A stretch of 57,545 nucleotides of DNA from Deltaproteobacteria bacterium (GCA_016875435.1 VGRE01000001.1:1-57545); one strand, 5' to 3'. Shown: positions 5,786-56,507, counted from the stretch's first letter. A program made the numbers and translations. Notes: generated by a model not told the origin, from the sequence alone.

Positions 5786-5947
5786 GCAGGCTGTAGGAGG
5801 TAGGCTCTAGGCGTTAGGGCCTCGGTCGGGGTGGTGGAGAGGCCATCGCCTTGCCTTCGGCCACGCCAGGAGTTGCGCGGGGGGTGCCGGGGCGGGCGGC
5901 ACCATCATGAACCCACCTGCCGCCTAAGCCCTGCAGCCTACAGTCTC

Positions 5948-8422: not shown

Positions 8423-8497
8423 GACGGTCGCTTCGGCTGCTCTTCGTTAGACTTGAGCGGCCGGGAGACATCTTCCCTGACTAGTTTCGCCGACGCG

Positions 8498-8794
8498 GTG
8501 CTGCGCGTGTTGAAGCCTCGGAACGTCCGTGAGCGGCTCCGGGCCCGCTTGCTGGGCGGCTGGACGGTCGTGCAAGTGCTCGAGCGGCTCGAGGCGGGCG
8601 ACTGGGCGTTGGACGGGCCCGGCGACGCGGCCGAGCAGGCGCTGGCCTACCGCCGCCGCGCCGAGGCGGTCCGCGCCGAGCTCCTGGCGCTCGCGGCTGC
8701 TGGCCGAGTGTGCCGGGGGACCACCACGATGGGGGCCACCCTCAAGAGCAAGGGCGAGCGCAAGATCATCGTCGACGTCTTCAGGCTCGCCTAG
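8498..8794 (+). CDS. hypothetical protein (about 98 aa), start uncertain
   Basis: This is the only coding-like tail of the 561-aa shadow ORF after the GGDEF/EAL gene ends. It converges with rfbB and overlaps it by 14 nt. No family recognised. Confidence 0.3.
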   Translation: MLRVLKPRNVRERLRARLLGGWTVVQVLERLEAGDWALDGPGDAAEQALAYRRRAEAVRAELLALAAAGRVCRGTTTMGATLKSKGERKIIVDVFRLA

Positions 8795-9701
8795 CTTCCT
8801 CCAATAGGTGCGGGAGCGCTGACGCCAGCGTGATCGTGGGCGAGTAGCCCAGTCGCACCAGGCGCGACCCATCCATGGCGTAGCGCCGGTCGTGCCCGGG
8901 ACGGTCGGGCACTGAGATGATCGCGTCGTCGCCGCGCCCGCTGAGGCGGCAGATTGCCTCGGCCACGCTGCGATTGGTCCTCGGCCCCTCGCCGGGCAGG
9001 TTGTAGGCGGTCCCCGGGGCGCCGCGCGTGGCCACCAGCATGCAGGCGCGGGCCACGTCGTCTGCGGACACCCAGTCGCGACAGTGAAGGCCGTCGCCGT
9101 AGAGCGGCAGGGGCTCCCCGCGCGCCGCCGCCCGGCAGAGGACGGGGAGAAGCTTCTCGGTGAACTGGCCGCTTCCAAAGCCATTGGCCGGGCGGAGGAT
9201 CACCGCGTCGAGCCCGTGGGTGCGGGCGGCTGCGGCCACGAGGTGCTCGGCGCCCGCCTTGCTCGCGGCGTAGGGCGACCCGGGACGAAAGGCCGCCGAC
9301 TCGTCGGCGAAACCCTCGGCGATGCTCCCGTACACCTCGTCCGTCGACACGTGCAGGAAACGCCCCACCCCGCGCTCCCGAGCCACGTCGAGCATCACCT
9401 GGGTGCCCACCACGTTGCTGCGCACGAAGGCGGCCGGGGCGGCAATGCTGCGGTCGACGTGAGTCTCGGCCGCCATGTGCACCACGAGATCCACAGCGCC
9501 GAGACGCTCGAAGGCGGCGCGCACGGCCAGGGGATCGGCCACGTCGCCCACGTGCAGCGGCGTGTCGCCCAGCCGACTCGCGTCGGCGGCGTAGGTGAGC
9601 GCGTCGAGCACGAGCAAGCGGTCGCCTGGGCGCGCGCGACGCCAGTGGGCCACCAGGTGGTGACCGAGGAAACCCGCGCCGCCGGTGACGAGGACGTTCA
9701 T
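8781..9701 (-). CDS. rfbB: dTDP-glucose 4,6-dehydratase
   Basis: VTGGAGFLG, AAETHVDRSI, STDEVYG, PYAASKAGAEHLV and DRPGHDRRYAMD are the canonical RmlB/SDR-extended motifs. Confidence 0.9.
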   Translation of the reverse strand: MNVLVTGGAGFLGHHLVAHWRRARPGDRLLVLDALTYAADASRLGDTPLHVGDVADPLAVRAAFERLGAVDLVVHMAAETHVDRSIAAPAAFVRSNVVGTQVMLDVARERGVGRFLHVSTDEVYGSIAEGFADESAAFRPGSPYAASKAGAEHLVAAAARTHGLDAVILRPANGFGSGQFTEKLLPVLCRAAARGEPLPLYGDGLHCRDWVSADDVARACMLVATRGAPGTAYNLPGEGPRTNRSVAEAICRLSGRGDDAIISVPDRPGHDRRYAMDGSRLVRLGYSPTITLASALPHLLEEARRA

Positions 9702-9725
9702 GCCGACCCTGCTACTCTACGCGGA

Positions 9726-10445
9726 ATGCGCGATCTCCGCGGCGTGGTGCTCGCCGGTGGCTCGGGAAGCCGACTCCACCCGCTCACCAAGACCACCAAC
9801 AAGCACCTGCTTCCCGTGGGGAGCAGGCCGATGGTCTACTACCCCATCGAGGCGTTGGTCGCGGCTGGCATTCTCGACATCCTCGTGGTCACCGGCGTGC
9901 ATCACTTCGGCGCGCTGGTGGCGCAGCTCGGCTCGGGCGCCGAGTTCGGGTGCCGCTTCACCTACAAGGTGCAGGACCGTGCTGGCGGCATCGCCGAGGC
10001 GCTGGGCCTCGCCGAGGACTTCGCGCACGGGGGACGGGTCGCGGTCGTGCTCGGCGACAACGTCTTCGACGCGCCGCTCCGCCCGCACCTCGATGCTTGG
10101 CACGAGAGCGGGAAGGCGGCGATGATCCTGTTGGCGCGCGTGCCCGACCCGCAGCGGTTCGGCGTCCCCCGCTTCGACGGCGAGCGGCTGGTGGAGGTGA
10201 TCGAGAAGCCCACCGAGCCGCCGTCGCCCTTCGCCGTGACCGGCGTGTACTTCTACGACTCGGCCGTCTACGACATCATCCGCACGCTTCGCCCCTCGAC
10301 GCGCGGCGAGCTGGAGATCAGCGAGGTGAACACGCGCTACATCGCGCGGGGAGACATGCACTGGGCCGAGCTGGGCGGGCGCTGGACCGACGCGGGGACG
10401 ATGGAGTCGTATGCGAGGGCGCAGGCGCTAGCGACCAGGCCGTAG
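9726..10445 (+). CDS. sugar-1-phosphate nucleotidyltransferase (RmlA-like, short form)
   Basis: Internal ATG at 9726 gives MRDLRGVVLAGGSGSRLHPLTKTTNKHLLPV, the G-x-G-x-R-L-x-P-L-T signature. The first 214 codons of the 453-aa ORF are antisense to rfbB. Confidence 0.85.
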   Translation: MRDLRGVVLAGGSGSRLHPLTKTTNKHLLPVGSRPMVYYPIEALVAAGILDILVVTGVHHFGALVAQLGSGAEFGCRFTYKVQDRAGGIAEALGLAEDFAHGGRVAVVLGDNVFDAPLRPHLDAWHESGKAAMILLARVPDPQRFGVPRFDGERLVEVIEKPTEPPSPFAVTGVYFYDSAVYDIIRTLRPSTRGELEISEVNTRYIARGDMHWAELGGRWTDAGTMESYARAQALATRP

Positions 10446-10573
10446 GGCGTGGGCTTGTGGGTATCCGGCGGTTGGGTACCAGCGCTCTACCGGTGTTCTC
10501 GGTGGCGCTGCGACGATCATCGCTGCCGCCGCTCCCGCCGCCGACGCTCAGGGTCTACGGCCTACGGCCTCCC

Positions 10574-10612
10574 CGTCACTGAAACCTGTCCCCCTCGTCA
10601 CGCGATCGTCAC
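10574..10612 (+). promoter_or_regulatory. candidate Pho-box-like direct repeat array upstream of the pst operon
   Basis: CGTCAC hexamers at 10574, 10596 and 10607 (22- and 11-bp phasing), plus CTGTCC at 10586. They resemble the E. coli CTGTCA(T/C) Pho-box half sites. A TAAGAA -10-like hexamer lies at 10623-10628. Confidence 0.35.
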
Positions 10613-10635
10613 GCACCATCGCTAAGAACCGGGCC

Positions 10636-11520
10636 GTGAGCTCGCTCCCACCCGACATCGTCGCCGACCCGCTCGAGGGGCGGCACCAGCGACAGAAGGT
10701 CGTGGAGTTGGCGCTCCTCGCCGCCACGCTCATGGCTGCTTTCCCGGCGCTGGCCATCATCGGCTTCATCCTCGTCAAGGGCGGCCCCGCCATCTCGGCC
10801 GAGTTCCTGCTCGAGATGCCGGTCTCGGGCATGACCAAGGGCGGCATCCTCCCGGCCATCGTGGGCACTTTGTGGCTCGTGGGCGTGTCGCTGGCCTTCT
10901 CGGTGCCGGTGGGCGTGCTCGCCGGGATGTACCTCTCCGAGTACGCCGGCGAGGGCAGGCTGGCGCGCGCCGTCGACCTCGCCATCGTCAACCTCGCCGG
11001 CGTGCCCAGCATCGTGCACGCGCTCTTCGGTCTCGGCGCATTCGTGCTCTTTCTCGACTTCGGCACCTCGATCCTCGCGGCCGGTCTCACGCTGGGGGTG
11101 ATGACCCTCCCGGTCATCATCACGTCCACCAAGGCCGCTTTGCAGGCTGTGCCGCAGAACTTTCGCGTGGCTTGTTGGAATCTCGGGGCCACCCGCTGGC
11201 AGACCATCTGGCACGTGGTGTTGCCCAACGCGCTCCCCGGGATCCTCACCGGGGTGATCCTGCAAGTGAGCCGCGCAGCCGGGGAAACCGCTCCGGTCCT
11301 CTTCACGGGCGCAGCCTTCTACCTGCCGATTCTTCCTACGAGCGTGTACGACCAGACGATGGCGCTGTCGATGCACGTCTTCGCGCTCGTCACCCAGGTG
11401 CCCAACGTGCCCGAGGCCACCAAGTATGGCACGGCCCTGGTCCTCCTCGGGGTGGTGGTGCTGTTCAACAGCTCGGCCATCGCGCTTCGTTACTACCTGC
11501 GTCGCAACCGGAAGTGGTGA
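10636..11520 (+). CDS. pstA: phosphate ABC transporter permease PstA
   Basis: GMTKGGILPAIVGTLWLV and the EAA-loop region TKAALQAVPQNFRVACWNLGATRWQ are typical of PstA. Confidence 0.9.
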   Translation: MSSLPPDIVADPLEGRHQRQKVVELALLAATLMAAFPALAIIGFILVKGGPAISAEFLLEMPVSGMTKGGILPAIVGTLWLVGVSLAFSVPVGVLAGMYLSEYAGEGRLARAVDLAIVNLAGVPSIVHALFGLGAFVLFLDFGTSILAAGLTLGVMTLPVIITSTKAALQAVPQNFRVACWNLGATRWQTIWHVVLPNALPGILTGVILQVSRAAGETAPVLFTGAAFYLPILPTSVYDQTMALSMHVFALVTQVPNVPEATKYGTALVLLGVVVLFNSSAIALRYYLRRNRKW

Positions 11521-12272
11521 TGTCCGCGCCGCACCTGTCCATCCAGGATCTCTCGCTGCGCCTCGGCGAAAAGCAGGTGCTCACGGGCGTGAGCCTCGAC
11601 GTGCCCCGCAACGGGATTGTCGGCATCATCGGCCCCGCCGGCGCGGGTAAGAGCTCGCTGCTCACTTGTTTCAACCGTACCGTGGAGCAGAACCCGCTCG
11701 CCCACATGACGGGGCGCGTGGTGCTCGACGGCGAGGACGTGCGCCGCATCGACACCAGCGACCTTCGGCGTCGCGTGGCGATGGTGTTGCCCTTGCCGGT
11801 GGGCCTGCCGATGTCGGTGTACGACAACGTGGCCTTCGCGCCGCGGATGGCGGGGGTGCGTCGCAAGGCCGAGCTCGACCAGATCGTGGAGCGCTGCCTG
11901 GTCCAGTCGGCGCTCTGGGACGAGGTCAAGGACCGTCTCGACATGCTGGGCACGCGCCTGTCGGGGGGCCAGCAACAGCGGCTCACGCTGGCGCGCGCCC
12001 TGTCGACCGACCCCGAGATCTTGTGTCTCGACGAGTTCAGCATCGCGATCGACCCGGTGACCACCATGCGCATCGAGGCGGTGCTGGTGGAGCTCAAGAA
12101 GTCGATGACGATCGTGATGGTGACGAACCTCTTGCTCCAGGCGCGTCGCATCGCGGACTACACGGTATTCATGCTCGCCGGCAAGGTGGTCGAGGCGGCC
12201 CCGACCGACGATCTCTTCGTGTTCGCGCGCGACCCGCGCACCAACGACTACCTGACGGGGAAGTTCGGATGA
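11520..12272 (+). CDS. pstB: phosphate ABC transporter ATP-binding protein PstB (copy 1)
   Basis: ATG at 11520 overlaps the pstA stop (ATGA). Walker A GPAGAGKSS, signature LSGGQQQRL, and the PstB-type C-terminus YLTGKFG. Confidence 0.9.
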   Translation: MSAPHLSIQDLSLRLGEKQVLTGVSLDVPRNGIVGIIGPAGAGKSSLLTCFNRTVEQNPLAHMTGRVVLDGEDVRRIDTSDLRRRVAMVLPLPVGLPMSVYDNVAFAPRMAGVRRKAELDQIVERCLVQSALWDEVKDRLDMLGTRLSGGQQQRLTLARALSTDPEILCLDEFSIAIDPVTTMRIEAVLVELKKSMTIVMVTNLLLQARRIADYTVFMLAGKVVEAAPTDDLFVFARDPRTNDYLTGKFG

Positions 12273-13027
12273 GCGAGCCGATCATCCGGTGCCGCGGGCT
12301 CTCGCTGTGGTACGGCAGCTTCCGCGCGCTCGACCGCGTGAGCCTCGACGTGAAGCCCGGCGAGATCCTCTCGCTCATCGGCCCCTCGGGCTGTGGGAAG
12401 TCCACGCTGATCCGGTGTTTCAACCGGATGAACGACTATCCCTACGTGCGCATCGAGGGCGACCTCCAGGTGGCTGGCTACGACGTGACGAGCAGGCAGA
12501 CCGACGCGCTGGCGCTGCGTCGCGACGCTGGAATGGTGTTTCAGCGACCGAACCCGCTCCCGCTCTCCATCCGCGACAACGTGCTGTTCGGCGTCCGTCT
12601 CCACGCGCCGCGCACGCCGCGGTCAGTGCAGGATGGGCTGGTCGAGAACTCGCTGCGCGCGGTGATGCTATGGGACCAGGTGAAGGACCGGCTCGATCAC
12701 GACGCCGAGACCTTGTCGCTCGAGGGGCGGCAGAAGCTCTGCATCGCGCGGCTGTTGCCGCTCAAGCCCAAGGTGTTGCTCATGGACGAGCCCTGCTCCG
12801 CGCTCGACCCCGACGGCATCGGGGCGGTCGAGGAGTTGATGGGGAGCCTGCGCGGCGCCTTCACCCAGGTGATCGTCACCCACAACATGCAGCAGGCGCG
12901 CCGGATCTCGGACCGTTGCGTGTTCATGCTGATGGGCGAGCTGGTGGAGTTGGGGCCCACCGCCCAGCTCTTCACCAAGCCGGTGGACGAGCGCACCGCT
13001 CGGTACATCGAGGGCCGCTACGGCTAG
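12269..13027 (+). CDS. pstB: phosphate ABC transporter ATP-binding protein PstB (copy 2)
   Basis: ATG at 12269 overlaps the upstream stop (ATGA). Walker A GPSGCGKST, Walker B LLMDEPCSALD, and the C-terminus YIEGRYG. Confidence 0.9.
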   Translation: MSEPIIRCRGLSLWYGSFRALDRVSLDVKPGEILSLIGPSGCGKSTLIRCFNRMNDYPYVRIEGDLQVAGYDVTSRQTDALALRRDAGMVFQRPNPLPLSIRDNVLFGVRLHAPRTPRSVQDGLVENSLRAVMLWDQVKDRLDHDAETLSLEGRQKLCIARLLPLKPKVLLMDEPCSALDPDGIGAVEELMGSLRGAFTQVIVTHNMQQARRISDRCVFMLMGELVELGPTAQLFTKPVDERTARYIEGRYG

Positions 13028-13106
13028 TTGTCACCCGATCGGCACGCGCGCTTCGCCGCCGCGCCACGGGGGTTGTTTATTCCTTGCCCGCCTCGAGGTT
13101 TCGCTC

Positions 13107-14009
13107 ATGACTCGTGTCCTCTTCCTCTCGCTCCTCGCGACAACCGCGTGCTCCCGCCCCGACAAGAACGGCGGCGAGGCCGACGCATCGAGGCCGGTCG
13201 TGCTGCAGGCCAAGGGCAGCGACACCATGGTCAACCTGATCCAGCGGCTCTCGGAGGAGTACGCCAAGGTGAGCCCAAGGACGGTGGTGGCGGTGACCGG
13301 CGGCGGCAGTGGCACCGGCATCAAGGCGATCATCGACGGCACCACCGACATGGCCGCCTCGTCGCGCGCCATGAAGGACGAGGAGAAGGCCCAGGCCGAG
13401 GGCAAGGGCATTCACCCTGTCGAGACGACGATCGCCTTCGACGGCCTCAGCATCTACGTCCACAAGGACAATCCGATGACTCAGGTCGACTTCGACACGC
13501 TCAAGCTGATCTTCGGCAGCGAGGGCACGGCGGCCCACTGGAAGGACGTGGGCGTGACGATGGACTGCGGCAACGGCGACGACGCCATCGTGAAGGTGGG
13601 TCGCCAGAACAACAGCGGCACCTACGAGTACTTCAAGGAGCACGTGCTCGGCACGGAAGGGAAGTTCACCTCGACGATGGACCAGTCCGGCACGCAGCAG
13701 GTGCTCGACGTCGTCGGCACCACCAAGTGCGCGATCGGCTACGGAGGCATGGGCTACTCCAACCCGGGCGCCAAGCACCTCTGCCTCGCCAAGGGCAAGA
13801 CCGACGCCTGCGTGGAGCCCATTGAGCAGAACGTGTTGAGCGGCAACTACCCTTTCAGCCGCGCCTTGTTCATCTACACCAACGGCGCGCCCAGCGGCGC
13901 GGTGAAAGAGTTCCTCGACTGGTCGCTGTCGGCGGCGGCCGACAAGGTCGTGGCCGAGGCGGGTTTCGTGCCCACGCCGAAGAGCGGCGCGGCGCCGGCG
14001 GGAGGCTAG
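13107..14009 (+). CDS. pstS: phosphate-binding lipoprotein PstS family
   Basis: Lipobox LLATTAC. GSDTMVNL and TGGGSGTGIKAIIDGTTDMAASSR are typical of PBP-like PstS proteins. Confidence 0.85.
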   Translation: MTRVLFLSLLATTACSRPDKNGGEADASRPVVLQAKGSDTMVNLIQRLSEEYAKVSPRTVVAVTGGGSGTGIKAIIDGTTDMAASSRAMKDEEKAQAEGKGIHPVETTIAFDGLSIYVHKDNPMTQVDFDTLKLIFGSEGTAAHWKDVGVTMDCGNGDDAIVKVGRQNNSGTYEYFKEHVLGTEGKFTSTMDQSGTQQVLDVVGTTKCAIGYGGMGYSNPGAKHLCLAKGKTDACVEPIEQNVLSGNYPFSRALFIYTNGAPSGAVKEFLDWSLSAAADKVVAEAGFVPTPKSGAAPAGG

Positions 14010-14011
14010 GG

Positions 14012-14908
14012 ATGGCGGAGATCGCGAGGCGTCGACCGCCGTCGTACACCCGGCACGTCGAGTTCGTGATCGAGGGGCTCATCCGCCTGTGCGGCGTGAG
14101 CGCGATCATCTTCATTCTCGCGATCTTCGTGTTCATCGGCAAGGAGGGCATCGGCTTCCTCCTGCGAAACGTGCTGCCGATGCTGGTGTCGATCGACTGG
14201 TCGCCCACCGCCGAGCCGCCGGTGTACGGCATCCTCGCGCTGGTCGTGGGCACGCTCTGGTGCGTGGGGCTGTCGCTCTGTTTCTCCGTGCCGGTCGGCC
14301 TGGCCTCGGCGGTGTACCTTTCGGAGTTCGCGAGCGACCGGGCGCGCGAGTCGCTGAAGGTGGTGGTGGAGCTCCTCGCCGCCATCCCGAGCGTGGTGTG
14401 GGGCTTCATCGGCGTGATGATCCTCAACCCGCTCCTGCAGAAGCTGGGCGCCCAGGTCGGGCTCAACGGGCTCAATGGCGCGATCGTGCTGGCGCTGATG
14501 ACCTTGCCGCTCTTGGTGTCGCTCGGCGAGGATGCGCTGCGCGCGGTGCCCGAGTCCTACCGGCAGGCGGCGATCGCCATGGGCGCCACCAGGTGGGAAA
14601 TGGTGTGGCGGGTGCTCATGCCCGCCGCCCAGCGCGGGTTGCTCGTTGCGGTGCTGCTCGGCGTGGGCCGCTGCATCGGCGAGACGATGGCGGTGTTGAT
14701 GGCCACCGGGCACGCCGTGCGGATCCCCACCTCGATCTACGACCCGGTCCGCACGCTCACCGCCACCATCGCGGCGGAGCTGGGCGAAGCCGTCCGTGGC
14801 GGGGAGCACTACCAGTCCTTGTTTGCGCTCGGGATCTTGCTCTTCGCGGTTACCTTCGTCGTCAACTTCATCGCAGACCGCACGCTCCGGGGCCGCCGGG
14901 CGTCCTAG
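14012..14908 (+). CDS. pstC: phosphate ABC transporter permease PstC
   Basis: VELLAAIPSVVWGFIG and AIAMGATRWEMVWRVLMPAA match PstC permease motifs. Confidence 0.9.
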   Translation: MAEIARRRPPSYTRHVEFVIEGLIRLCGVSAIIFILAIFVFIGKEGIGFLLRNVLPMLVSIDWSPTAEPPVYGILALVVGTLWCVGLSLCFSVPVGLASAVYLSEFASDRARESLKVVVELLAAIPSVVWGFIGVMILNPLLQKLGAQVGLNGLNGAIVLALMTLPLLVSLGEDALRAVPESYRQAAIAMGATRWEMVWRVLMPAAQRGLLVAVLLGVGRCIGETMAVLMATGHAVRIPTSIYDPVRTLTATIAAELGEAVRGGEHYQSLFALGILLFAVTFVVNFIADRTLRGRRAS

Positions 14909-44471: not shown

Positions 44472-46826
<2,355 letters not shown>

Positions 46827-47109
46827 GGAATCTGGGCGCCTAACGTTGACACCGGCCCGCGGCCTTTCTACAAACGTCACATGGGCAACCTCTCCACGCA
46901 GAAGGCACCGCAGGCGTAGCAGGCCAGCGCCGGTCTCGGCGCTGCGGTGTCCACGCGGGAGGGCGGGAAGCAGGTCGCCGTCCACCTGATGCAACGCGGG
47001 CGCAAGTCCACGGCGGCGGCCGTGGAGTCGCGCCGCGCCGGGGAAACCGACGAGGCGGTGAGGGCCGCGCTCTCGCAGTAGCCTCCAGGCGTTGTAAACT
47101 GCGGGGCCC

Positions 47110-50100
47110 GTGGCCCAGGCCCAGCCCGTCCAGTTCGGTGAGTACCAGCTCATCGAGCGCCTCGCGACCGGCGGGATGGCCGAGGTGTACCTCGCGCGGA
47201 GCAGTGGCATCGAGGGCTTCGAGAAGCGGCTGGTCATCAAGAAGATCCTCCCCGAGCTGGCGCAGAACCCGCGCTTCGTCCAGATGTTCGTTCACGAGGC
47301 CAAACTCTCGGTCTCGCTGAGCCACCCCAACATCGTCCAGGTCTTCGACCTCGGGAAGGTCAACAACGACCCCTACATGGCCATGGAATACATCCACGGC
47401 CGGGACCTCACCTCGATCATGCGCGCGCTGCGTCGTAGCGGCGAGCGTATGGATGTGGGGATCGCCGTCTACGTGGCCGGCAAGGTGCTGCGCGGCCTCG
47501 GCTACGCCCACTCGCGCACGGCGCCGGACGGGCGCCCGCTCCACATCGTCCATCGCGACGTGTCGCCGCACAACGTCGTGGTGAGCTTTGAGGGCGAGGT
47601 GAAGCTCGTCGACTTCGGCATCGCGCGGCTCGTGGGCGAGTCGCTCGGCGAGGCGGATCCCTTGCAGGCGGGCCGGCCGGGCGGCGGCAAGTTTGCCTAC
47701 ATGTCGCCCGAGCAGGCGCAGGGCCTCGCCGTCGACCACCGCTCCGACGTGTTCTCGCTCGGCGTGGTGCTCTTCGAGATGCTGGCCGGTCGGCGGCTGT
47801 TCGCCAACGACGATCCCGACGAGAAGCTCAGGCAGGTCATCGCCTGCGAGGTGCCCGACATCCGCGCCATCAACGAGGCCGTGACCGACGCGCTGCATGC
47901 CATCCTCTGCACGGCCCTGTCGCGCCGCGTCGAGGACCGCTACCTCGACGCCGCGTGCTTCGAGGAGGAGCTTCGCGCCTTCGCCTTCGCTCAGGGTCTA
48001 CGGGCCGACGGCAGTGCGCTGTCGGCGCTGGTCCGGCGGCTGTTCGCCGCCGAGCTGGCGGGCGACACCTCTGCCACCAACCTCGACCTCCTGGCCGGCG
48101 ATCTCGACGCGATGCACACCGGGGTCGACCACGAGCCGAGCATGTCGGCCTCCACGAGCGAGAGCGCCTCCGCCTCCGAGGAGCGTGCGCACCACCGTTT
48201 GCTCGGCGTGCACGGCGAGCGCAAGAACGTGGTCGCCCTGGTGGTGGAGGTGAACGGTCTCACCGAGTTCTCCGCTCGCGCCGAGACCGAGGACGTGGGC
48301 CGCGTTCACTTCAAGATGCTGCGGATGGTGCGCACGCTGGTGGATCGCATGGGCGGCGTGGCCGAGCGCTTCGACGACGACACGCTCTTCGTGTTCTTCG
48401 GCCTCCCGCGGGCCCACGGCGACGACCTCGACCGGGCGCTCGGCTGCGCGCGCGAGTTCCACCGGCTCGCGGGCCGGCTCCGGCGGCGCGGCTTCGCGGT
48501 GGAGTTCAGCGTGGGCGTTCACGTGGGCGAGCTGAACGTCGGGCGCCAGCGGGGTCGCCACTACCGCTTCACGGCGCGGGGCGACACGCTCAAGACCTGC
48601 GTCCGCCTGGCCTACGCGGCCGACCCGGGCAGCACGCTGGTGTCGGACCGGGTGGCGGCGCTGGCCGGTGACCGTTTCCCTTTCGAGCGCGGCCCGGAGC
48701 TGCGTCGCAAGGGCACCCGCGGGCATCGCTCCACCTTCGTCCTCGGCGAGGGGCGGCGTCGCGCCGGGCGCGGTGTCGTTGGGCGCTGGCTGCGCCGGGG
48801 CAACGAGCTGGAGGTGCTCCGCGACGCCATCGGCGGCCTGCGCGAGGGCCGCGGGTCGCGCATCGGCGTGCACGGCGACGCCGGCATGGGAAAAACGCGC
48901 TTCTTCCGAGAGCTGCGCGAGCTCGCCTCGCGGCGGCAAATCCCGGTCTTCCACGGTCGCGCGCTCCCCTTCGGCGCAGATCGCCCCTTCGCGCCCTTCC
49001 GCGACCTCATCTCCGACATCCTGGGCATCGAGGCCGATACCCAGCTCGTCGAGGTCAAGGAGCGGCTGCAACGGCTCGCGGCCCTCCGGCTGGACGAGGT
49101 GGACATCGCGGTGATCGGCTCGCTCTACGCCGTGGAACTCGGCGACAAGGGCCTACCGGCACGCGAAGCGATCGACACGGTGCTGGTGAAGCTGGTGCGA
49201 GGACTGGCGCGGGAGCGGCCCACCATCGTGATGCTGGAAGACATCCAGTACCTCGACACGCTCGAGGGCCAGCTGTTCAACCAGTTGCTTCACGCCACCG
49301 AGGGCGAGTCGGTGTTGTTGCTTGCCAGCTGGCGAGGCGAGGCACCTCAGGGGTGGGCGGCGCGCATGGACGTGGTGCACCTGCGGCCCCTGGAGCCCGA
49401 GACGCTGGAAGCCCTGGCGGCCGAGGTGCTGGGCGCCGAGTCCATCGGCTCGGATCTGTCGCGACTTGTGCGACGCACGACGGAAGGCAACCCCCTTTAC
49501 CTGGAGGAGGTGCTCAAAGCGCTGCGCCAGGTCGGCCGGATCTGGTACGAGGGCGGCCGCGCCCGCCTGAAGGATCCCCAGCTCGATCCACGCATCCCCG
49601 ACACCCTCCAGGGCCTCATCGCCGCGCGGGTGGACACCCTCGATCCGCTCGCCAAGGGGGCGCTCCAGGTCGCGGCGATCGTCGGCCTCGGCTTCTCGCC
49701 GGTGCTGCTCGGCGAGGCCGTGGGCGCCGACGAGCCAATGGCGCTGGTGGGCGAGCTGGTGCGCGCCGGGCTCGTGGTACCGGACGGGCGCTCGCCCGAC
49801 ACCGCCTACTCCTTCGCCTCGGTGCTGGTGTGGGAGAGCGTAGATAGGGGTATTCTCGGCGTACAACGTCGTGAGTACCACCGCATGGTCGCGGCGGCGA
49901 TGGAGCGGGTGTACGCGGGGCGGCTCGAGTCGGCCATGGAGAGCTACGCCCAGCATTGCCAGGCCGGCGGGCGGCAACGCGACGCCGTGGCTGCCGTGCT
50001 CCGGGCCGGGGCAGATCATCGCAACGCACAGTTCTTCGAGCGCGCGCTGGACTGCTTCCTCCGCGGTATCGCCTGGCACGACGCGGCCCCGCGCGGCGAG

Positions 50101-51063
50101 AAGGCGCACGGCGTGGAGGCCGAGCTGCACGTGTGCGCCGGCGAGGTGGCGGCGTTGCTCGGGCTCCCCACGGCCGAGCGCATGTTCTCGGTGGCCCTCG
50201 ACATCGCGAGCGAGGTCGGTCCCCGGTCGTGCGAGGCCCGGGCGCTCCTGGGGATCGGCCAGCTATACGCGCAGCGCGGAAAGCTGGCGGTCGCTCGCGC
50301 CAACGTGGAAGACGCGTCGCGCATCGCGCGGCGGCAGGGCGAGGTGGCCCTCCACGTGCAATGCCTGGAGTCGCTCGGCGCGATCGCGCTCGACGAGGGC
50401 AACGCAGAGGAGGCGCGCAGCTTCTATGCCGAGGGCCTGAGCGTGGCCGGCGAGCGGGGCGACCTGGCGGCGCGCATGATCCTGGGCCTTGCCTGCCACT
50501 CTCTCCGCAAGGGCGAGAACGCTGCCGCGCTGGCGATGCTGAAGGAGGCGCTGCCGCACGCCGAGCGTGCGACCGACCGCGTCCTCGCGGGACGAATCGT
50601 CAACAACATTGGCATCGCCTTCATCGACGAGGGCAAGCCGGCCGAGGCGCTCGTCGAGTTTCGCCGGGCGCTGGAGCTGCGACGGGGGCTCGGCTACCGG
50701 CGTGGCGAGGTGATCAACCTCCACAACATCGGCGACGCCTACTTCCGCATGGGCGACCACCCCCGCGCCTGGGCCGCCTTCGAGCAGAGCCGCGACCTCG
50801 CGCGGGAGTGCGGCTGGGAGCGCGGCGCGGTGCTCAACGAGGTGTACCTCGCCTACCTGCGCGGCGGGCGCGGGGAAGACGCCGCCCCGGAGCTGAGTCG
50901 TCTCGCGACGGTAGCCACCCGCCTCGGCGAGCCCGAGTCGGGCTTCACTGCCCGGTGGTTTGCAGCGCGCTTGCTGGGCGACAAGGCGGGCGAGGCCGCG
51001 GTGGCGTCGGAGGCCGCCGCGGCGGGCTTCCCGAGCCTCGCCCGGCAGCTCGGCCAGGGCTGA
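47110..51063 (+). CDS. multidomain Ser/Thr kinase - cyclase-homology domain - AAA/STAND ATPase - TPR protein
   Basis: HRDVSPHNVVV and DFGIA (kinase). VVALVVEV...FFGLPRAHGDD (class III cyclase-like). GDAGMGKTRF (P-loop). C-terminal TPR-like repeats. Confidence 0.9.
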   Translation: MAQAQPVQFGEYQLIERLATGGMAEVYLARSSGIEGFEKRLVIKKILPELAQNPRFVQMFVHEAKLSVSLSHPNIVQVFDLGKVNNDPYMAMEYIHGRDLTSIMRALRRSGERMDVGIAVYVAGKVLRGLGYAHSRTAPDGRPLHIVHRDVSPHNVVVSFEGEVKLVDFGIARLVGESLGEADPLQAGRPGGGKFAYMSPEQAQGLAVDHRSDVFSLGVVLFEMLAGRRLFANDDPDEKLRQVIACEVPDIRAINEAVTDALHAILCTALSRRVEDRYLDAACFEEELRAFAFAQGLRADGSALSALVRRLFAAELAGDTSATNLDLLAGDLDAMHTGVDHEPSMSASTSESASASEERAHHRLLGVHGERKNVVALVVEVNGLTEFSARAETEDVGRVHFKMLRMVRTLVDRMGGVAERFDDDTLFVFFGLPRAHGDDLDRALGCAREFHRLAGRLRRRGFAVEFSVGVHVGELNVGRQRGRHYRFTARGDTLKTCVRLAYAADPGSTLVSDRVAALAGDRFPFERGPELRRKGTRGHRSTFVLGEGRRRAGRGVVGRWLRRGNELEVLRDAIGGLREGRGSRIGVHGDAGMGKTRFFRELRELASRRQIPVFHGRALPFGADRPFAPFRDLISDILGIEADTQLVEVKERLQRLAALRLDEVDIAVIGSLYAVELGDKGLPAREAIDTVLVKLVRGLARERPTIVMLEDIQYLDTLEGQLFNQLLHATEGESVLLLASWRGEAPQGWAARMDVVHLRPLEPETLEALAAEVLGAESIGSDLSRLVRRTTEGNPLYLEEVLKALRQVGRIWYEGGRARLKDPQLDPRIPDTLQGLIAARVDTLDPLAKGALQVAAIVGLGFSPVLLGEAVGADEPMALVGELVRAGLVVPDGRSPDTAYSFASVLVWESVDRGILGVQRREYHRMVAAAMERVYAGRLESAMESYAQHCQAGGRQRDAVAAVLRAGADHRNAQFFERALDCFLRGIAWHDAAPRGEKAHGVEAELHVCAGEVAALLGLPTAERMFSVALDIASEVGPRSCEARALLGIGQLYAQRGKLAVARANVEDASRIARRQGEVALHVQCLESLGAIALDEGNAEEARSFYAEGLSVAGERGDLAARMILGLACHSLRKGENAAALAMLKEALPHAERATDRVLAGRIVNNIGIAFIDEGKPAEALVEFRRALELRRGLGYRRGEVINLHNIGDAYFRMGDHPRAWAAFEQSRDLARECGWERGAVLNEVYLAYLRGGRGEDAAPELSRLATVATRLGEPESGFTARWFAARLLGDKAGEAAVASEAAAAGFPSLARQLGQG

Positions 51064-51114
51064 GTCAGGGCGTCGTAGGCGCAGCGGCTCGAGTCCAGCC
51101 GCATCGGCGAGGCG

Positions 51115-51315
51115 GTGAACTACGCGGCGCGTCTCTGCGGGCTCTGCCCGGCCCTGAACCAGGATCTCGTCGTGAGCGAGACCGTCTACGACGCGTGTCG
51201 CGAGCTCCACACCTTTCGCGAGATGCCGAAAATCAAGGTCAAGGGCATCGCCGGCGAGCCGACTCTATGGGCAGTCACGGGCCCCCGGAGGCCCGGCGGG
51301 AGCAGCACCTCGTGA
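51115..51315 (+). pseudogene. isolated C-terminal fragment of a class III adenylate/guanylate cyclase domain
   Basis: (IGEA)VNYAARLCGLCPALNQDLVVSETVYDACRELHTFREMPKIKVKGIAGEPTLWAV matches only the last third of the domain. An in-frame TAG at 51076 blocks any N-terminal extension. Confidence 0.45.
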
Positions 51316-52217
51316 ACGTCTACGAAGAGAACCGCGAGATGCTGGAGCAGACCTGGGCGCGCGTGCGCGCGCGGCTCGACACCTACCCTGGTCGCCTCGG
51401 CGAGCTGGGGTTCCGCTTCTTCGACCAGGTGGGCGTGGACTCCCTGATCGCCACCGACGCCGCCCCCCTGCTCCACCTCCCCCTGTGGCTTCGTCGCGAC
51501 GTCCACCCGCAGGCGATGGGCGACATCCTGGAGGGCACGGCGCTTTCCTACGCCTACGTGCGCATCCTCGACAACCTCGTGGACGAGCCCGAGTCGAGCG
51601 GCTCGGCGGCCCTGATGCACGTGGCCAACGCGCTGTTGTGGGACGCTCTCGACCTGTGGCGGCCGCACGCCAACGCGCGCGCCTGGGCGGCCTGTCGTGA
51701 CGCATGGCTGCTGTACAGTGACCGCACGGAGGCCGAGCGCCGCATCGTCACTGGTCGCGACGCATATGCGTTCGAAGACTTCGTGGAACACGCCCAGAAG
51801 TGCGCGCTCGCCGAGGCGCCTCTCTACCTGGTGCTCTCTTCGAGCGGCGACGCCCGCACCTGGGAGTCGGTGCGCCCTCTGGTTCACGAGCTCGCGGTGT
51901 CCTACGGCCTGTTCAACGACGTGATGGGCAATGCCCGCGACCTCGAGCGCGGCGCGCACTCCTTCCTCCTGGCCAAGGCGCGCGCACTGGCGGAAAACCG
52001 GGGCGGTGGCGCCGACGTGGAGCGCATCCTCGCCACCACCTCGCTCCAGGAACGATTCCTCGACGAGGCCGCCGTCGCGCTCGACCGCGCCCGCCCCCAC
52101 GCCGAGGCCCTCGACATGCCCAACTTCCCCATCTTCGCCGAGGAGCGCAAGGCGCGCCTTCGCCAGGTGAAGGAAGGAATCACGCTGCTGCGATTGGTGA
52201 GCTCGCTGGCAGCCTAA
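51312..52217 (+). CDS. isoprenoid-synthase-fold protein (squalene/phytoene synthase-like, first Asp-rich motif degenerate)
   Basis: GTG at 51312 overlaps the preceding stop (GTGA). YVRILDNLVDE sits where DDxxD/DxxxD is expected. FNDVMGNARDLERGAHSFL resembles NILRDVGEDxxRGRxYLP. The protein is predicted all-helical. This is only the last 301 codons of the 753-aa shadow ORF. Confidence 0.5.
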   Translation: MNVYEENREMLEQTWARVRARLDTYPGRLGELGFRFFDQVGVDSLIATDAAPLLHLPLWLRRDVHPQAMGDILEGTALSYAYVRILDNLVDEPESSGSAALMHVANALLWDALDLWRPHANARAWAACRDAWLLYSDRTEAERRIVTGRDAYAFEDFVEHAQKCALAEAPLYLVLSSSGDARTWESVRPLVHELAVSYGLFNDVMGNARDLERGAHSFLLAKARALAENRGGGADVERILATTSLQERFLDEAAVALDRARPHAEALDMPNFPIFAEERKARLRQVKEGITLLRLVSSLAA

Positions 52218-52265
52218 GGACAGCACCCCGGTGATCCGATCCCACGTCGTGAACCCGGAGTCCCC

Positions 52266-52499
52266 ATGTCGGCCATGCCCTCGGCGCTGCAGGAGCTCGT
52301 CGGGCGCTCCCTCATCGACGCGGACTTCCGCAAGTCCCTCATGAGCGACACCCGCGGCACGCTGCCGCGCGAGGGTTTCGAGTTCGACGAGTCCACGCTC
52401 GCCGCCATCGAGATGGCCACACGCGACCCCGAGCGCGTGCGCAGCTTCTCCGATGCCTTCTGGGCAGAGTTGTTGGGTCGCGGCGAGTACCTGGTTTAG
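52266..52499 (+). CDS. 77-aa peptide resembling NHLP/Nif11-related (Os1348/Franean1_4349-type) putative RiPP precursors
   Basis: GGAG lies 5 nt upstream of the ATG. LQELVGRSLIDADFRKSLMSD...GFEFDESTLAAIEM recalls the leader-like helical repeat of that clan; this is from memory. Confidence 0.55.
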   Translation: MSAMPSALQELVGRSLIDADFRKSLMSDTRGTLPREGFEFDESTLAAIEMATRDPERVRSFSDAFWAELLGRGEYLV

Positions 52500-52508
52500 G
52501 GCGCGGCC

Positions 52509-53531
52509 ATGCAAGTCCACCCGCTCGAGTTGGTGGTGCGCCAGCCAGAGGCGTCGCCCGAGGTGCGCCGCGTCGATCCCGGCGCGGCCTTGCTCGCCAC
52601 CCGGCCTCGGCCGGTACCGGCCGAACTGCGCGGGGTCCACGGCGAGCACGTGCTCACCACCCCCGACCGCCGCGTGCACCTGCGCCTCGACGCCCAGGAA
52701 TACCACCTGTGGACGCTCATCGACGGCAGGCGCACCGTGGCCGAGATCGCCACGGCCTACTTCCTCCGCCATGGCGCGCTCCCCGTGGGCCGCGTCGGCG
52801 CCTTCATCAGCAGCCTTCGCTGCCACGGCCTGGTGGAGGTGGCGCCGAGCGATTTTCTCCGCGAGCGCGGCGCCGGACTCGCCGAGTGGCGCTGGCACGG
52901 TGCCCACGACGTGGCGGAGCTGGCATGGCGGGCGGTGGGCCCGATGTTCCATGCTGCGATGGCGCCGATCTGGGCTGCCGTGCTGGGCCTCGGCGCCTAC
53001 AGCTGGGCGATCGACGACCGGCTCGCGCCCACGGGCGCCGGGACGGTGGTGGGGGCGACCCTGCTCCTCGCCGCGATCCACGTCTTCGTCCACGAGCTGG
53101 GCCACGCGATGGCGGTGGTCGCCGCCGGGCGACAGGTCCGCTTCGCCGCCGTGGGACTGGCAGGCTTCTACGTGGACAGTACCGACCTGTTCCTCGGGAC
53201 CCGGCGCGAGCACGCGATCGCGTCGCTCGCGGGGCCCTTCGCCACCGCGCTCCTCACTGCCGGCTGCGCGCTCCTGGCCTGCTCCGCGTCCGCCGAGCTC
53301 GCCGGGGCACTCCGGCCGGGGGTGTACCTCGGCCTCGGGGTGCTAGCCCTCACGCTCTACCCCTTCGCTCTCGACAATGACGGTCGCCGCGCGTGGAGCG
53401 ACCTGTGCGGCGAGGCCGAGCTCGGCTGGCCGGCGGTGCGCGCCGTGTTCACGATGAGGGGGTGCCCGAGCCAGTGGACATACACCCTCGGCGCGGCGGC
53501 GATCCCCCTCACGCTCGTGCTCTCGCACTAG
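52509..53531 (+). CDS. M50 (site-2 protease family) membrane metalloprotease with N-terminal PqqD/RRE-like domain
   Basis: EYHLWTLIDGRRTVAEIATAYFLRHG...FISSLRCHGLVEV is PqqD-like. HELGHAM is the HExxH motif. LYPFALDNDG is the second M50 motif. Several TM helices. Confidence 0.7.
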   Translation: MQVHPLELVVRQPEASPEVRRVDPGAALLATRPRPVPAELRGVHGEHVLTTPDRRVHLRLDAQEYHLWTLIDGRRTVAEIATAYFLRHGALPVGRVGAFISSLRCHGLVEVAPSDFLRERGAGLAEWRWHGAHDVAELAWRAVGPMFHAAMAPIWAAVLGLGAYSWAIDDRLAPTGAGTVVGATLLLAAIHVFVHELGHAMAVVAAGRQVRFAAVGLAGFYVDSTDLFLGTRREHAIASLAGPFATALLTAGCALLACSASAELAGALRPGVYLGLGVLALTLYPFALDNDGRRAWSDLCGEAELGWPAVRAVFTMRGCPSQWTYTLGAAAIPLTLVLSH

Positions 53532-54932: not shown

Positions 54933-56507
54933 TCACCAGGGCGCGATCTCGTAGAGCACGCCGCCCCGTGACACGGTAGTGTCGCGCCAGGACGCCACCG
55001 CGTAGAAATAGCCGTCGCGACAGCCCACGGCCGTCCCGAGGTACTGGTCGGCCTCGCTGGCGTAGATGTCGGCGTCCGCGTCGGCGCGTCCCAGGGCGCC
55101 GGGCGGGAGATCGAGAAAGATCCAGGCGCTGCCGCCGCCGCTGGCGGTGCTGTTGTCGGTGTAGTTGCCCACGAGCAGGTCGACGTTGCCGTCGGCGTCG
55201 AGGTCACCGCTCACCAGGCTCGCGCCCACCTCGATGCCAGCCTCGTAGATCTCGGTGGTGGCGTCGGTCCAGGCGTAGGTGCCGGGGCCCGGGTCGGCGA
55301 AGACCACCACGCCACCGTAGCGGTAGGCGGCGAGCGCCACGTCGGGCAAGCCCGAGCGGTCGAGGTCGGCGGGACGGGCCACGCCGCGGCTATTGGTGCC
55401 AAACCAGGCGGCGGCCGATGCGGGGCCGGTGAAGGTCCATGTCGCGCTGCCGAGCCCGGCGGCGCCGCCCGGCAGGCCGTACACCGCGCCCCCGTCGGCG
55501 GCGGCGTCGTCGACCCCGGACGCGCCGACGAGGAGGTCGTCGTAGCCGTCGCCGTCGATGTCGCCGCCCACCACGGTGGCACCGAAGTCGTCGCCCGCGG
55601 CGAGCCCGGTGAAGAGCGTGCCGTCGCTCGCGGAGAGAGAGCCCACGGCGCCGGCGAAGATCCCCACCAGGCCGGCGTCAACCTCGGCGGCGCCCACGGC
55701 CAGTTCGTCCACGCCGTCGCCGTCGAGGTCGGCGGCGTCGAGCGCCTCGCCCCACTCCGCCGTGGCCCACTCCCCGGTGACGGCGATGGCCGCGTCGGCC
55801 GGGGCGAGGCTCCCCGCCACCGGCCCGGCGAAGACGTAGGCCACGCCCACGTTGCCGGCGCTCCGGTCGCCCACCAGCAGGTCGGGCTGGCCATCGCCGG
55901 TGGCGTCGCGCATGCCGAGCGGGACGAAGCCGAGCTCGCTCTCGCCGTTGACCACTGCCACCGCGTCGGCCTCGGCGTCGCCGGTCCAGGCGCTGGAGGC
56001 GGGGAGCACGAAGGCGGCGCCCGGGCCGTGGAAGGGCGAGCCGATGACCGTGTCGTCGAGCCCGTCGCCGGTGATGTCGCCGAGGAGGCTGAGGTTGTCG
56101 ATGGAGCCCATGCGCCCGTCGGCGGTCGCGCCCCCTTCCTCCGCCACGAACACGTCGCGCACGTCGACGTCACCGCTGTATGCGGGCTCCGGCCCGGGCT
56201 CGGCGCTGTCGGCGCTGTCGGCCGAATCCGCGCTGTCGGCAGCCGATCCGCTGTCGATTCCGCTGTCGATTCCGCTGTCGACCCCGCTGTCGACCCCGCT
56301 GTCGACCCCGCTGTCGACCCCGCTGTCGACCCCGCTGTCGACCTCGCTGTCGACCCCGCTGTCGACCCCGCTGTCGACCCCGCTGTCGATTGCACTGTCG
56401 CCGTCGCCGTCGCTGTCGCTGGTGACTGTCCCGTCCTTGCCCGGGTCGTCGACGCTCTCGCCGGGGTCTTCGCCTACGCAAGCGTAGAACATCGCGGTCA
56501 GGATCAC
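54933..56507 (-). CDS. FG-GAP/VCBS repeat protein with N-terminal (DSGV)n low-complexity tract
   Basis: Repeated GDxxGDGxxDLxVG units (GDITGDGLDD, DATGDGQPDLLVG, DLDGDGVDELAVG, DIDGDGYDDLLVG, DLDADGNVDLLVG). Confidence 0.8.
   Translation of the reverse strand: MILTAMFYACVGEDPGESVDDPGKDGTVTSDSDGDGDSAIDSGVDSGVDSGVDSEVDSGVDSGVDSGVDSGVDSGVDSGIDSGIDSGSAADSADSADSADSAEPGPEPAYSGDVDVRDVFVAEEGGATADGRMGSIDNLSLLGDITGDGLDDTVIGSPFHGPGAAFVLPASSAWTGDAEADAVAVVNGESELGFVPLGMRDATGDGQPDLLVGDRSAGNVGVAYVFAGPVAGSLAPADAAIAVTGEWATAEWGEALDAADLDGDGVDELAVGAAEVDAGLVGIFAGAVGSLSASDGTLFTGLAAGDDFGATVVGGDIDGDGYDDLLVGASGVDDAAADGGAVYGLPGGAAGLGSATWTFTGPASAAAWFGTNSRGVARPADLDRSGLPDVALAAYRYGGVVVFADPGPGTYAWTDATTEIYEAGIEVGASLVSGDLDADGNVDLLVGNYTDNSTASGGGSAWIFLDLPPGALGRADADADIYASEADQYLGTAVGCRDGYFYAVASWRDTTVSRGGVLYEIAPW
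56201..56400. repeat. coding tandem repeats: 9-nt (GGCGCTGTC) and 12-nt (CCGCTGTCGACC) units
   Basis: About 13 consecutive 12-nt units encode (DSGV)n and a few 9-nt units encode (ADS)n in the FG-GAP gene. All are read directly from the sequence. Confidence 0.85.

Follow-up and report, generated by a model that had tools for sequence, protein, structure and literature searches.

A Frankia_peptide/Os1348-type precursor gene paired with an isoprenoid-synthase-fold enzyme: a candidate peptide-modifying cassette with a PqqD-M50 protease in a deltaproteobacterial genome

Isoprenoid-synthase-fold enzymes that act on leader-bearing peptides have been described in several systems. In PalQ/PalX/PalP of Paenibacillus alvei, an NHLP-type precursor, whose leader is conserved and whose C-terminal core is short, adjoins a prenyltransferase of the isoprene synthase superfamily, formerly annotated as a terpene synthase, in a cluster that also holds a signalling kinase (PMC10853753). 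In ComQ/ComX/ComP of Bacillus, a prenyltransferase acts on a ribosomal pheromone precursor, with a sensor kinase alongside, and ComQ, PalQ and the ChrPC P domain have been classed in a 2026 review as trans-IDS-like (trans-isoprenyl diphosphate synthase-like) peptide prenyltransferases with Ord1-like architecture (PMC13290415). The present analysis concerns three intact plus-strand genes that fill positions 51312 to 53531 of the window, the 57,545-nucleotide stretch of deltaproteobacterial DNA that was analyzed (VGRE01000001.1:1-57545), and that encode an enzyme, a small peptide and a PqqD-M50 membrane metalloprotease. It is held with moderate confidence that they form a cassette of the RiPP (ribosomally synthesized peptide that is modified post-translationally) type, the core being a Frankia_peptide/Os1348-type precursor of the NHLP clan and a class I isoprenoid-fold enzyme that acts on it. 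The best-supported model would take ComQ/ComX, and especially PalQ/PalX/PalP, as the closest analogy.

The initial annotation of this locus had placed an isoprenoid-synthase-like enzyme beside a leader-type peptide outside any recognized RiPP class. That part was superseded, since ComQ/ComX, PalQ/PalX with its NHLP-type precursor, and ChrPC are precedents and the class is not unprecedented (PMC10853753, PMC13290415). The window system shares with PalQXP the precursor type with conserved leader and short C-terminal (here putative) core, the adjoining enzyme of the same superfamily and the signalling kinase, and the PalQ acceptor, an aromatic residue at the C terminus, can be listed as a further likeness. 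The two differ in that the PalQ acceptor is a Trp, whereas no Trp is conserved here; in that a histidine kinase is found there and a Ser/Thr kinase-STAND-TPR protein plus a cyclase here; and in that PalQXP has no dedicated protease, in contrast to the fusion of a RiPP recognition element (RRE) with an M50 protease in the window. With ComQXP the likeness lies in a trans-IDS-like prenyltransferase, an activity predicted for the window enzyme, and in the accompanying kinase; the ComX leader also belongs to the LigA-like group in which the ECOD curators place ComX, Nif11, Frankia_peptide and the nitrile hydratase (NHase) alpha chain (PMC12353581). ComQ prenylates an internal Trp and has no true second Asp-rich motif (PMC10853753), and the window system differs further in phylum and signalling proteins. 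As summarized in PMC13290415, ChrPC and NctPC (Hubrich et al. 2024) prenylate a peptide and then cyclize the prenyl chain to polycyclic isoprenoid moieties; similarly, divergent relatives of the window system carry a squalene-hopene-cyclase-like gene (L051) or such fusions (P0128). By the same summary these are prenyltransferase-cyclase fusions acting on Trp, whereas the window cluster has no cyclase-type partner. The window enzyme was likened to ComQ, PalQ and ChrPC by description. A variant of a ComQ/ComX- or PalQ/PalX-like system would be new because there is no Trp acceptor, and a limited full-text literature search found no paper on the pairing of this enzyme with a Frankia_peptide.

The open reading frames were recovered on the plus strand where they had been proposed, with the GGAG ribosome-binding site ahead of the 77-residue frame, and the motifs of the initial annotation (the LDNLVDE region, read as DNLVDE; NDVMGNARD; HELGH; LDNDG) all translated as quoted and were conserved in homologues of the respective proteins (Table 1). 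Its overall interpretation was supported, since each of the four refuting conditions it had set turned out in its favor. The GTG start of the enzyme gene is supported because homologues begin with M-x-V-Y-E-E-N at the same place.

The AlphaFold2 (AF2) model of the enzyme reached a pLDDT (predicted local distance difference test) of 90.3 and a pTM (predicted template modelling score) of 0.89. A Foldseek search of the PDB with this model gave 38 matches at an E value of ≤1e-3, all of them trans-polyprenyl diphosphate synthases or prenyltransferases, such as Ord1 and MoeN5 (3aqb_B, E 1.3e-5; TM-scores of 0.47 to 0.73, identity of 12 to 18%). In a sequence comparison with solved structures, the enzyme family had no match at E ≤10, and only the fold comparison succeeded. 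As modelled, the enzyme has the class I isoprenoid-synthase fold; trans-prenyl diphosphate synthases and prenyltransferases are its nearest neighbors in structure, and its motifs are of the terpene-synthase type. The fold predicted earlier for the 301-residue protein thus stood, and its label as squalene/phytoene synthase (SQS/PSY)-like did not: PF00494 had no match at E ≤1 in the window enzyme or in 12 close homologues, the sole SQS_PSY match being a weak one in a distant fused relative (P0118, E 5.8e-4). Terpene_syn_C_2 (PF19086) scored 13.8 bits on the window enzyme (E 0.048), under its gathering cut-off of 23.7, and matched 5 of the 12 homologues (best E, 0.0016); Pfam and NCBIfam scans gave no polyprenyl_synt match and no NCBIfam match at E ≤1. 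Pfam contains no model of the family. Searched with a profile hidden Markov model (HMM), 1.84 billion cluster representatives yielded 474 relatives at E ≤1e-3, 151 at ≤1e-10 and 27 at ≤1e-30. Among the distant relatives are fusions to FAD domains resembling geranylgeranyl reductase or to domains resembling squalene-hopene cyclase, and one relative, P0094, reaches the Terpene_syn_C_2 threshold at 24.0 bits, for which reasons the superfamily is considered terpenoid-related.

Across all enzyme lineages aligned, R84, D87, D91, D203 and D210 were invariant and N202 nearly so. The first motif reads DN in the window lineage, and divergent members have RIQDDxxDE, the canonical DDxxD; the second, NDxxGxxxD (N202-D203-x-x-G206-x-x-x-D210), has the spacing of an NSE/DTE motif. 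Since the metal ligands are kept across lineages, the enzyme is argued to be catalytic. The non-catalytic scaffold that had been offered as an option looks unlikely for the same reason, the invariance of the metal-binding Asp residues.

For the peptide, an NHLP/Os1348-type identity had been proposed and gained HMM support, with both matches just below their cut-offs: PF14407 (Frankia_peptide) matched residues 10 to 58 at 34.6 bits (E 2.4e-8; cut-off, 48), and NF038399 (Os1348-family NHLP clan) matched residues 7 to 65 at 37.6 bits (E 1.8e-9; cut-off, 40). Precomputed annotation likewise gives PF14407 to the window peptide and its relatives, and the canonical NHLP leader model TIGR03793 scored 15 bits, under its cut-off of 50.9. 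With a profile of ten orthologues, one and the same N-terminal stretch matched Os1348 (6lk7, E 0.015), a chimera carrying an NHLP leader (8tb1, E 0.038) and, at E ~0.3, alpha chains of NHase. The peptide is thereby predicted to carry the N-terminal three-helix NHase-alpha/LigA-like domain typical of this family of ~70 to 100 residues. The Os1348-Os1351 cluster of Pseudomonas sp. Os17 has a precursor of the same family (NF038399, PF14407) and an HExxH metallopeptidase; in contrast to the window system, its tailoring genes encode a GNAT acetyltransferase and a dehydrogenase of the SagB type, and it has no isoprenoid-fold enzyme, RRE-M50 fusion or STAND protein (PMC7726476). The Frankia_peptide and ATP-grasp systems (Iyer et al. 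2009, as cited in PMC8939145; also L018 and L021) use the same precursor family too, and those of L018 and L021 also have a homologous PqqD-M50 protease; they differ in that a RimK-like ATP-grasp ligase is the modifying enzyme and in that the protease bears two C-terminal cNMP (cyclic nucleotide monophosphate)-binding domains.

Throughout the window lineage, the peptide is 77 residues long in every locus, with 66 to 81% identity along its whole length; in the same genomes, the protease is 45 to 48% and the enzyme 46 to 50% identical. A word-indexed search with the peptide returned close relatives only, and distant peptides were located via the genes neighboring enzyme homologues. Comparison with these gave a leader/core pattern: the N-terminal ~50 residues, which keep the motif L[IV]GRxxxDxxFR over six lineages, are shared, and the C-terminal ~25 differ. 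The putative core (residues 53 to 77) is nearly invariant inside the window lineage and unrelated between lineages, the six tails ending in GEYLV, GDATPG, DRKAAF, GPVGAI, DRAAY and DPSGY. An aromatic residue stands at or near the C terminus in 4 of the 6 lineages. Within the window lineage, Tyr75 is invariant in the context RGEYLx, and W66 is present only in the window's copy. In the alignment, leader and tail are not separated by a GG or GA motif. Neither a transmembrane nor a hydrophobic segment is present in the peptide, and an RRE is therefore a sensible means for the M50 protease to recruit it.

Linkage of the enzyme gene to a Frankia_peptide gene was observed in six divergent lineages: the window lineage, L041, L042, L043/L044, L050 and L051/L052 (Table 1). 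The enzymes of the divergent pairs match the family profile at E 1e-20 to 1e-58, and their flanking genes are entirely different. Because such divergent enzymes again adjoin Frankia_peptide genes among otherwise unrelated neighbors, the enzyme-peptide pair is taken to be an ancient functional unit. The proposal that the three genes form a unit stood in so far as they are linked in the window lineage, but the stable, conserved core consists of enzyme and peptide, frequently joined by a STAND kinase/cyclase protein, and the M50 protease as a partner of the pair is specific to the window lineage. The protease beside the pair differs in class, being RRE-M50 in the window lineage and S53 in L043; next to the enzyme homologue of L045 lies a Trypsin_2 protease, together with an unclassified 102-residue neighbor. 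A STAND kinase/cyclase-AAA-TPR protein accompanies the pair in three lineages (window lineage, L043 and L051), and a response regulator (L045) or a histidine kinase (L048) lies beside other enzyme homologues. Links of these systems to STAND kinase/cyclase proteins and to cNMP or phospho-Thr signalling are thus recurrent. The cyclase-type neighbors in L050 and L051 hint at further processing of an isoprenoid moiety. The L043 locus (5431-14066) resembles a fuller biosynthetic cluster; its S53 peptidase is of the pro-kumamolisin type, and its WelO5-like protein may be an oxygenase or a halogenase.

In the protease, all 10 family members matched Peptidase_M50 (PF02163; best E, 1.7e-6) and PqqD (PF05402; best E, 6.9e-4). 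The M50 family here is divergent, and the window protease scores under the Pfam gathering values (PF02163, 10.6 versus 27.2 bits; PF13398, 12.8 versus 26); the NCBIfam LiaK/YydH model gave 11 bits against a cut-off of 225. H195, E196, H199, N290 and D291 were invariant in the alignment, and the M50 motifs lie in or beside predicted helices and hydrophobic segments, which flank HELGH. On these features, the protein is assigned to the site-2-type Peptidase M50, with HExxH and the downstream DG Asp within predicted hydrophobic helices. Membrane site-2-type proteases with HExxH...DG motifs are also encoded beside their peptide substrates in the epipeptide (EpeP) and pearlin (TglG/TmoG) systems, where M50 proteases take part in RiPP maturation (PMC10885120); the window protease differs in the fusion of M50 to a PqqD/RRE domain.

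The PqqD-like nature of the protease N terminus, as previously suggested, was borne out by profile comparison. Against solved structures, the family profile matched PqqD (5sxy) best, at E 0.0025, and SpoIVFB in the catalytic region. With the N-terminal domain alone and distant homologues included, 12 of 16 sequences matched PqqD (best E, 5.3e-6), and the PDB profile matches were PqqD followed by TbiB1 (E 0.043), TfuB1 (0.36) and PaaA (0.5), all of them RRE proteins. The PqqD score of the window protease itself, 14 to 17 bits, is below the Pfam cut-off of 23.4. In the AF2 model, built from 7 sequences, the membrane core was good and residues 1 to 125 had a pLDDT below 50; at that confidence, the predicted topology comprises strands 39-43, 46-50 and 57-60 and helices 62-70, 77-87 and 93-105, the order expected of the winged-helix RRE fold. 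Foldseek matches were weak, with SpoIVFB at the top (E 0.17) and TbiB1 at E 0.26. The RRE-M50 fusion is well supported by the profiles, while the RRE fold stays at the level of sequence because of the low pLDDT of the N-terminal model and the weak Foldseek matches. A non-exhaustive literature search found no described M50-PqqD/RRE fusion.

Distant homologues of the whole PqqD-M50 unit, 25 to 33% identical in one stretch spanning both regions, were found in Chloroflexi and Actinobacteria. These proteins have 600 to 1190 residues and carry two cNMP-binding domains in Chloroflexi or an FHA phospho-Thr-binding domain in Catenulisporales. In the window lineage, a cyclase and a Ser/Thr kinase are encoded by neighboring genes, compared with the cNMP and FHA domains fused to the distant proteases. 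The RRE-M50 protease is paired with Frankia_peptide genes in the Chloroflexi loci L017, L018 and L021, in two of which (L018 and L021, from Anaerolineae) a RimK-type ATP-grasp ligase is also present. The isoprenoid-fold enzyme was absent from the Chloroflexi and Actinobacteria PqqD-M50 loci examined, and the small open reading frames upstream of Chloroflexales M50 genes (L024, L025, L030 and L031) had no Pfam match. Because PqqD-M50 pairs with Frankia_peptide in Chloroflexi without the enzyme, the RRE-M50 protease is regarded as a module specific for Frankia_peptide leaders that was recruited by different pathways.

The gene order in the window lineage is Lon (opposite strand), Ser/Thr kinase-AAA16-TPR (~1320 residues), class III cyclase (435 to 462 residues), enzyme, 77-residue peptide and PqqD-M50, so that the conserved block exceeds the trio by the upstream kinase and cyclase genes. 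All sufficiently long loci of this lineage (L001-L016 and L035-L039; about 20 loci) contain the enzyme, peptide and protease genes together. The co-occurrence that had been expected of them therefore holds, but they are not always contiguous: an opposite-strand GDSL-lipase-like gene lies between enzyme and peptide in L005/L006/L016, and three genes (360, 233 and 135 residues) with no Pfam match lie there in L007 (6645-8898), an 86%-identical relative. The distance from peptide to M50 gene is always 1 to 10 nucleotides, and in the window the protease start codon lies 9 nucleotides past the peptide stop codon. Genes 3' of M50 differ among L001, L003 and L005, and the block is therefore considered to be selectively retained.

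The kinase-STAND protein of the window matched Pkinase (E 4.9e-33), AAA_16 (1.3e-16) and TPR_12 (1.9e-20), and its HRD, DFG and VIKK kinase motifs are intact. A weak, degenerate cyclase-like domain (Guanylate_cyc, E 0.0016) lies at residues 372 to 545, between kinase and AAA16. Of the class III cyclase gene, a 66-residue remnant is left, as concluded from a clean deletion of ~1137 bp relative to four close relatives: blastn found this segment in L009, L008, L036 and L007 and missing from the window, with the junction near 51078/51079. The ~1.14-kb deletion takes the first ~380 codons of the gene, and the remnant aligns with residues 380 to 432 of the 435-residue L001 cyclase. The remnant's stop codon and the GTG start of the enzyme gene share bases (GTGA), an overlap that survives the deletion, which could be a real loss or an assembly artefact of the metagenome-assembled genome (MAG). 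Lon was rejected as a member of the system: it is conserved solely within the window lineage and, because it is absent from divergent enzyme-peptide loci, is probably inherited synteny. The G+C content is ~70% across the whole window and 71% in the region with the genes; a promoter and terminator consensus scan of that region found nothing, a result that is silent on operon structure. Elsewhere in the window, a 12-nucleotide tandem repeat (56248-56389; 11.8 copies, 96% matches) within the minus-strand open reading frame 54933-56507 codes for (DSGV)n near the N terminus of a 524-residue protein.

Table 1. Features of the window and of related loci (positions within related loci are prefixed with the locus)
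Feature	Position	Strand	Description or basis
Kinase-AAA_16 (STAND)-TPR protein gene; candidate sensor/regulator	47110..51063	+	1317 residues; Pfam and kinase motifs
Lon protease gene	44472-47240	-	Divergent, upstream of kinase gene
Class III nucleotide cyclase remnant, C-terminal	51115..51315	+	66 residues; 43% identity to L001 cyclase
301-residue enzyme gene (trans-prenyltransferase/terpene-synthase-like; candidate peptide modifier)	51312..52217	+	301 codons, GTG start
First Asp-rich motif DNLVDE (D87, N88, D91, E92)	51570..51587	+	Translated sequence and alignment
Second metal-binding motif NDVMGNARD (N202, D203, G206, D210)	51915..51941	+	NSE/DTE triad spacing
GGAG ribosome-binding site of peptide gene	52257..52260	+	Read in sequence; 5 nucleotides before ATG
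77-residue peptide gene	52266..52499	+	77 codons, ATG start
Peptide residues 1-52, predicted NHLP-clan/LigA-like leader domain	52266..52421	+	Family models; residue-52 boundary estimated
Peptide residues 53-77, putative core RDPERVRSFSDAFWAELLGRGEYLV, plus stop codon	52422..52499	+	Conservation pattern
PqqD(RRE)-M50 membrane metalloprotease gene	52509..53531	+	340 codons; Pfam matches
Predicted PqqD-like RRE, protease residues 37-110	52617..52838	+	Pfam PqqD over residues 46-108
HELGH zinc-binding/catalytic motif of M50	53091..53105	+	H195, E196, H199 invariant
LDNDG, second M50 motif with third zinc ligand Asp	53370..53384	+	N290, D291 invariant
PqqD-M50 homologues with signalling-domain fusions	L018 9887-12133; L024 9319-12723; L020 4225-6081
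Enzyme-peptide locus	L041		Enzyme (37% identical), then Frankia_peptide open reading frame (E 1.8e-7)
Enzyme-peptide locus	L042		Cyclase, enzyme, 74-residue Frankia_peptide (53.7 bits, above cut-off 48)
Enzyme locus	L040		Cyclase overlapping enzyme gene; contig ends after
Enzyme-peptide locus	L043/L044		S53 peptidase, WelO5-like 2-oxoglutarate (2OG) oxygenase, enzyme, methyltransferase, 80-residue Frankia_peptide, convergent cyclase-like-AAA16-TPR (1356 residues)
Enzyme-peptide locus	L050 2898-5233		Enzyme, 82-residue Frankia_peptide 5 nucleotides later, lycopene-cyclase-like flavoprotein, MFS transporter
Enzyme-peptide locus	L051/L052; L051 7001-13174		Enzyme, 73-residue Frankia_peptide, squalene-hopene-cyclase-like (SQHop_cyclase) protein, Pkinase-AAA16-TPR (1358 residues)

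For the window, the families or folds of the three proteins, the conservation of their catalytic motifs and the recurrent linkage across lineages are established, and beyond these we infer a mechanism as follows. The soluble 77-residue precursor would be recognized via its N-terminal three-helix leader, and the enzyme would use its Asp-rich and NSE-like motifs, together with Mg2+, to bind a prenyl diphosphate. The isoprenoid would then be transferred, or transferred and cyclized, onto a residue within the C-terminal ~25 residues of the precursor, Tyr75 being the leading candidate acceptor. The membrane M50 protease would capture the leader by its fused PqqD/RRE domain and cleave it away, perhaps with release of the product at the membrane. 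The kinase-AAA-TPR STAND protein, together with the cyclase in relatives, may sense the product or control its production; ComP and PalP of the ComQXP and PalQXP pheromone systems would be the parallels.

Several observations weigh against such a prenylated peptide. Trp is the target of every characterized trans-IDS-like peptide prenyltransferase (PMC13290415), and none is conserved in the peptides of the window lineage or of the five other lineages. No cleavage motif was recognizable in the peptide, no gene for prenyl-donor supply was identified in the cluster, and no Frankia_peptide neighbor was detected for the enzyme homologues L045 and L048. None of the window's three proteins reaches a curated Pfam or NCBIfam cut-off, the predicted RRE fold comes from weak profile matches and a low-confidence model, and the enzyme gene is parted from the peptide gene in L005 and L007. 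In addition, the peptide is the most conserved of the three gene products, over its full length, which would also fit a folded partner protein, and Os1348 crystallized as a folded dimer (PMC7726476). The main rival is built on this last point: the LigA-like protein would be a small subunit or folded regulatory partner in a circuit of proteolysis and second messengers, degraded by PqqD-M50 on Ser/Thr-kinase or cNMP signals, and the enzyme would make a free terpenoid or other diphosphate-derived molecule as the input or output. Besides the fixed length and full-length conservation of the small protein, this account draws on the use of LigA-like domains as enzyme subunits (LigA and the TglI N-terminal domain; PMC12353581), on the cNMP-binding and FHA fusions of distant PqqD-M50 homologues, on the cyclase and Ser/Thr kinase genes adjoining in the window lineage, on the overlap of cyclase and enzyme genes there and in L040 and L042, which suggests translational coupling, and on the two-component genes beside other enzyme homologues. 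It is nevertheless judged unlikely. The leader is conserved but the C-terminal tails vary by lineage, a pattern typical of precursors rather than of subunits of enzymes; the peptide's neighbors in other lineages include proteases of unrelated classes and tailoring enzymes (2OG oxygenase, methyltransferase, ATP-grasp); a PqqD/RRE domain is characteristic of leader recognition in RiPP pathways; and the cyclase is mostly deleted in the window with the other three genes intact.

Less probable still is a pearlin-like chemistry, in which the peptide would serve as a reusable scaffold modified at its C-terminal residue or residues and the M50 protein, as a carboxypeptidase, would free either a small modified amino acid or a short fragment bearing the prenyl group. 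TglG and TmoG, both membrane M50 proteases, do cleave modified C-terminal residues off scaffold peptides (PMC10885120), PalQ acts strictly on the terminal residue (PMC10853753), and both the strong conservation of the whole peptide and the aromatic residue at or near most C termini would agree with it. However, no PEARL/LanB-like amino-acid-adding enzyme was found in any locus examined, two residues follow the Tyr in the window lineage (YLx), and no M50 gene lies beside the pair in L043/L044, L050 or L051/L052. That the three genes are independent and merely inherited in synteny within one MAG lineage is very improbable. The close relatives all belong to one clade that also shares the unrelated upstream Lon gene, and other genes have been inserted between enzyme and peptide genes (L005, L007), but the pair recurs in distant lineages where the flanks, including Lon, are entirely different, the pairing of PqqD-M50 with Frankia_peptide recurs in Chloroflexi, and the genes downstream of M50 differ within the window lineage itself.

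The reading of the locus as a peptide-modifying RiPP-type cassette can be carried further, to a widespread, undescribed class of peptide-terpenoid hybrid RiPPs. The enzyme family (474 representatives) would prenylate, and in some lineages help to cyclize, an isoprenoid on a residue other than Trp, perhaps a Tyr or Phe at the C terminus, of Frankia_peptide-type precursors, and the products would be signals for the giant STAND kinase/cyclase-TPR receptors. This extension is possible but doubtful. If true, it would amount to a ComX-like pheromone circuit outside the Firmicutes, wired into Ser/Thr-kinase and cyclic-nucleotide signalling.

What appears to be new is the unmodelled enzyme family with Frankia_peptide precursors that have no Trp acceptor, the PqqD-M50 fusion and the recurrent STAND partner. 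The recurrence of the enzyme-peptide pair suggests an undescribed group of probably prenyl-modified peptides, possibly for signalling, and the pair offers a handle for mining such gene clusters. The fusion of PqqD to M50 suggests a way in which a soluble substrate can be targeted by a membrane site-2-type protease, and the cNMP and FHA fusions of the protease, together with the linked STAND genes, would connect RiPP maturation to second-messenger signalling. A family acting on precursors without a conserved Trp would add to the known prenylation chemistry and to the biocatalysts for peptide lipidation.

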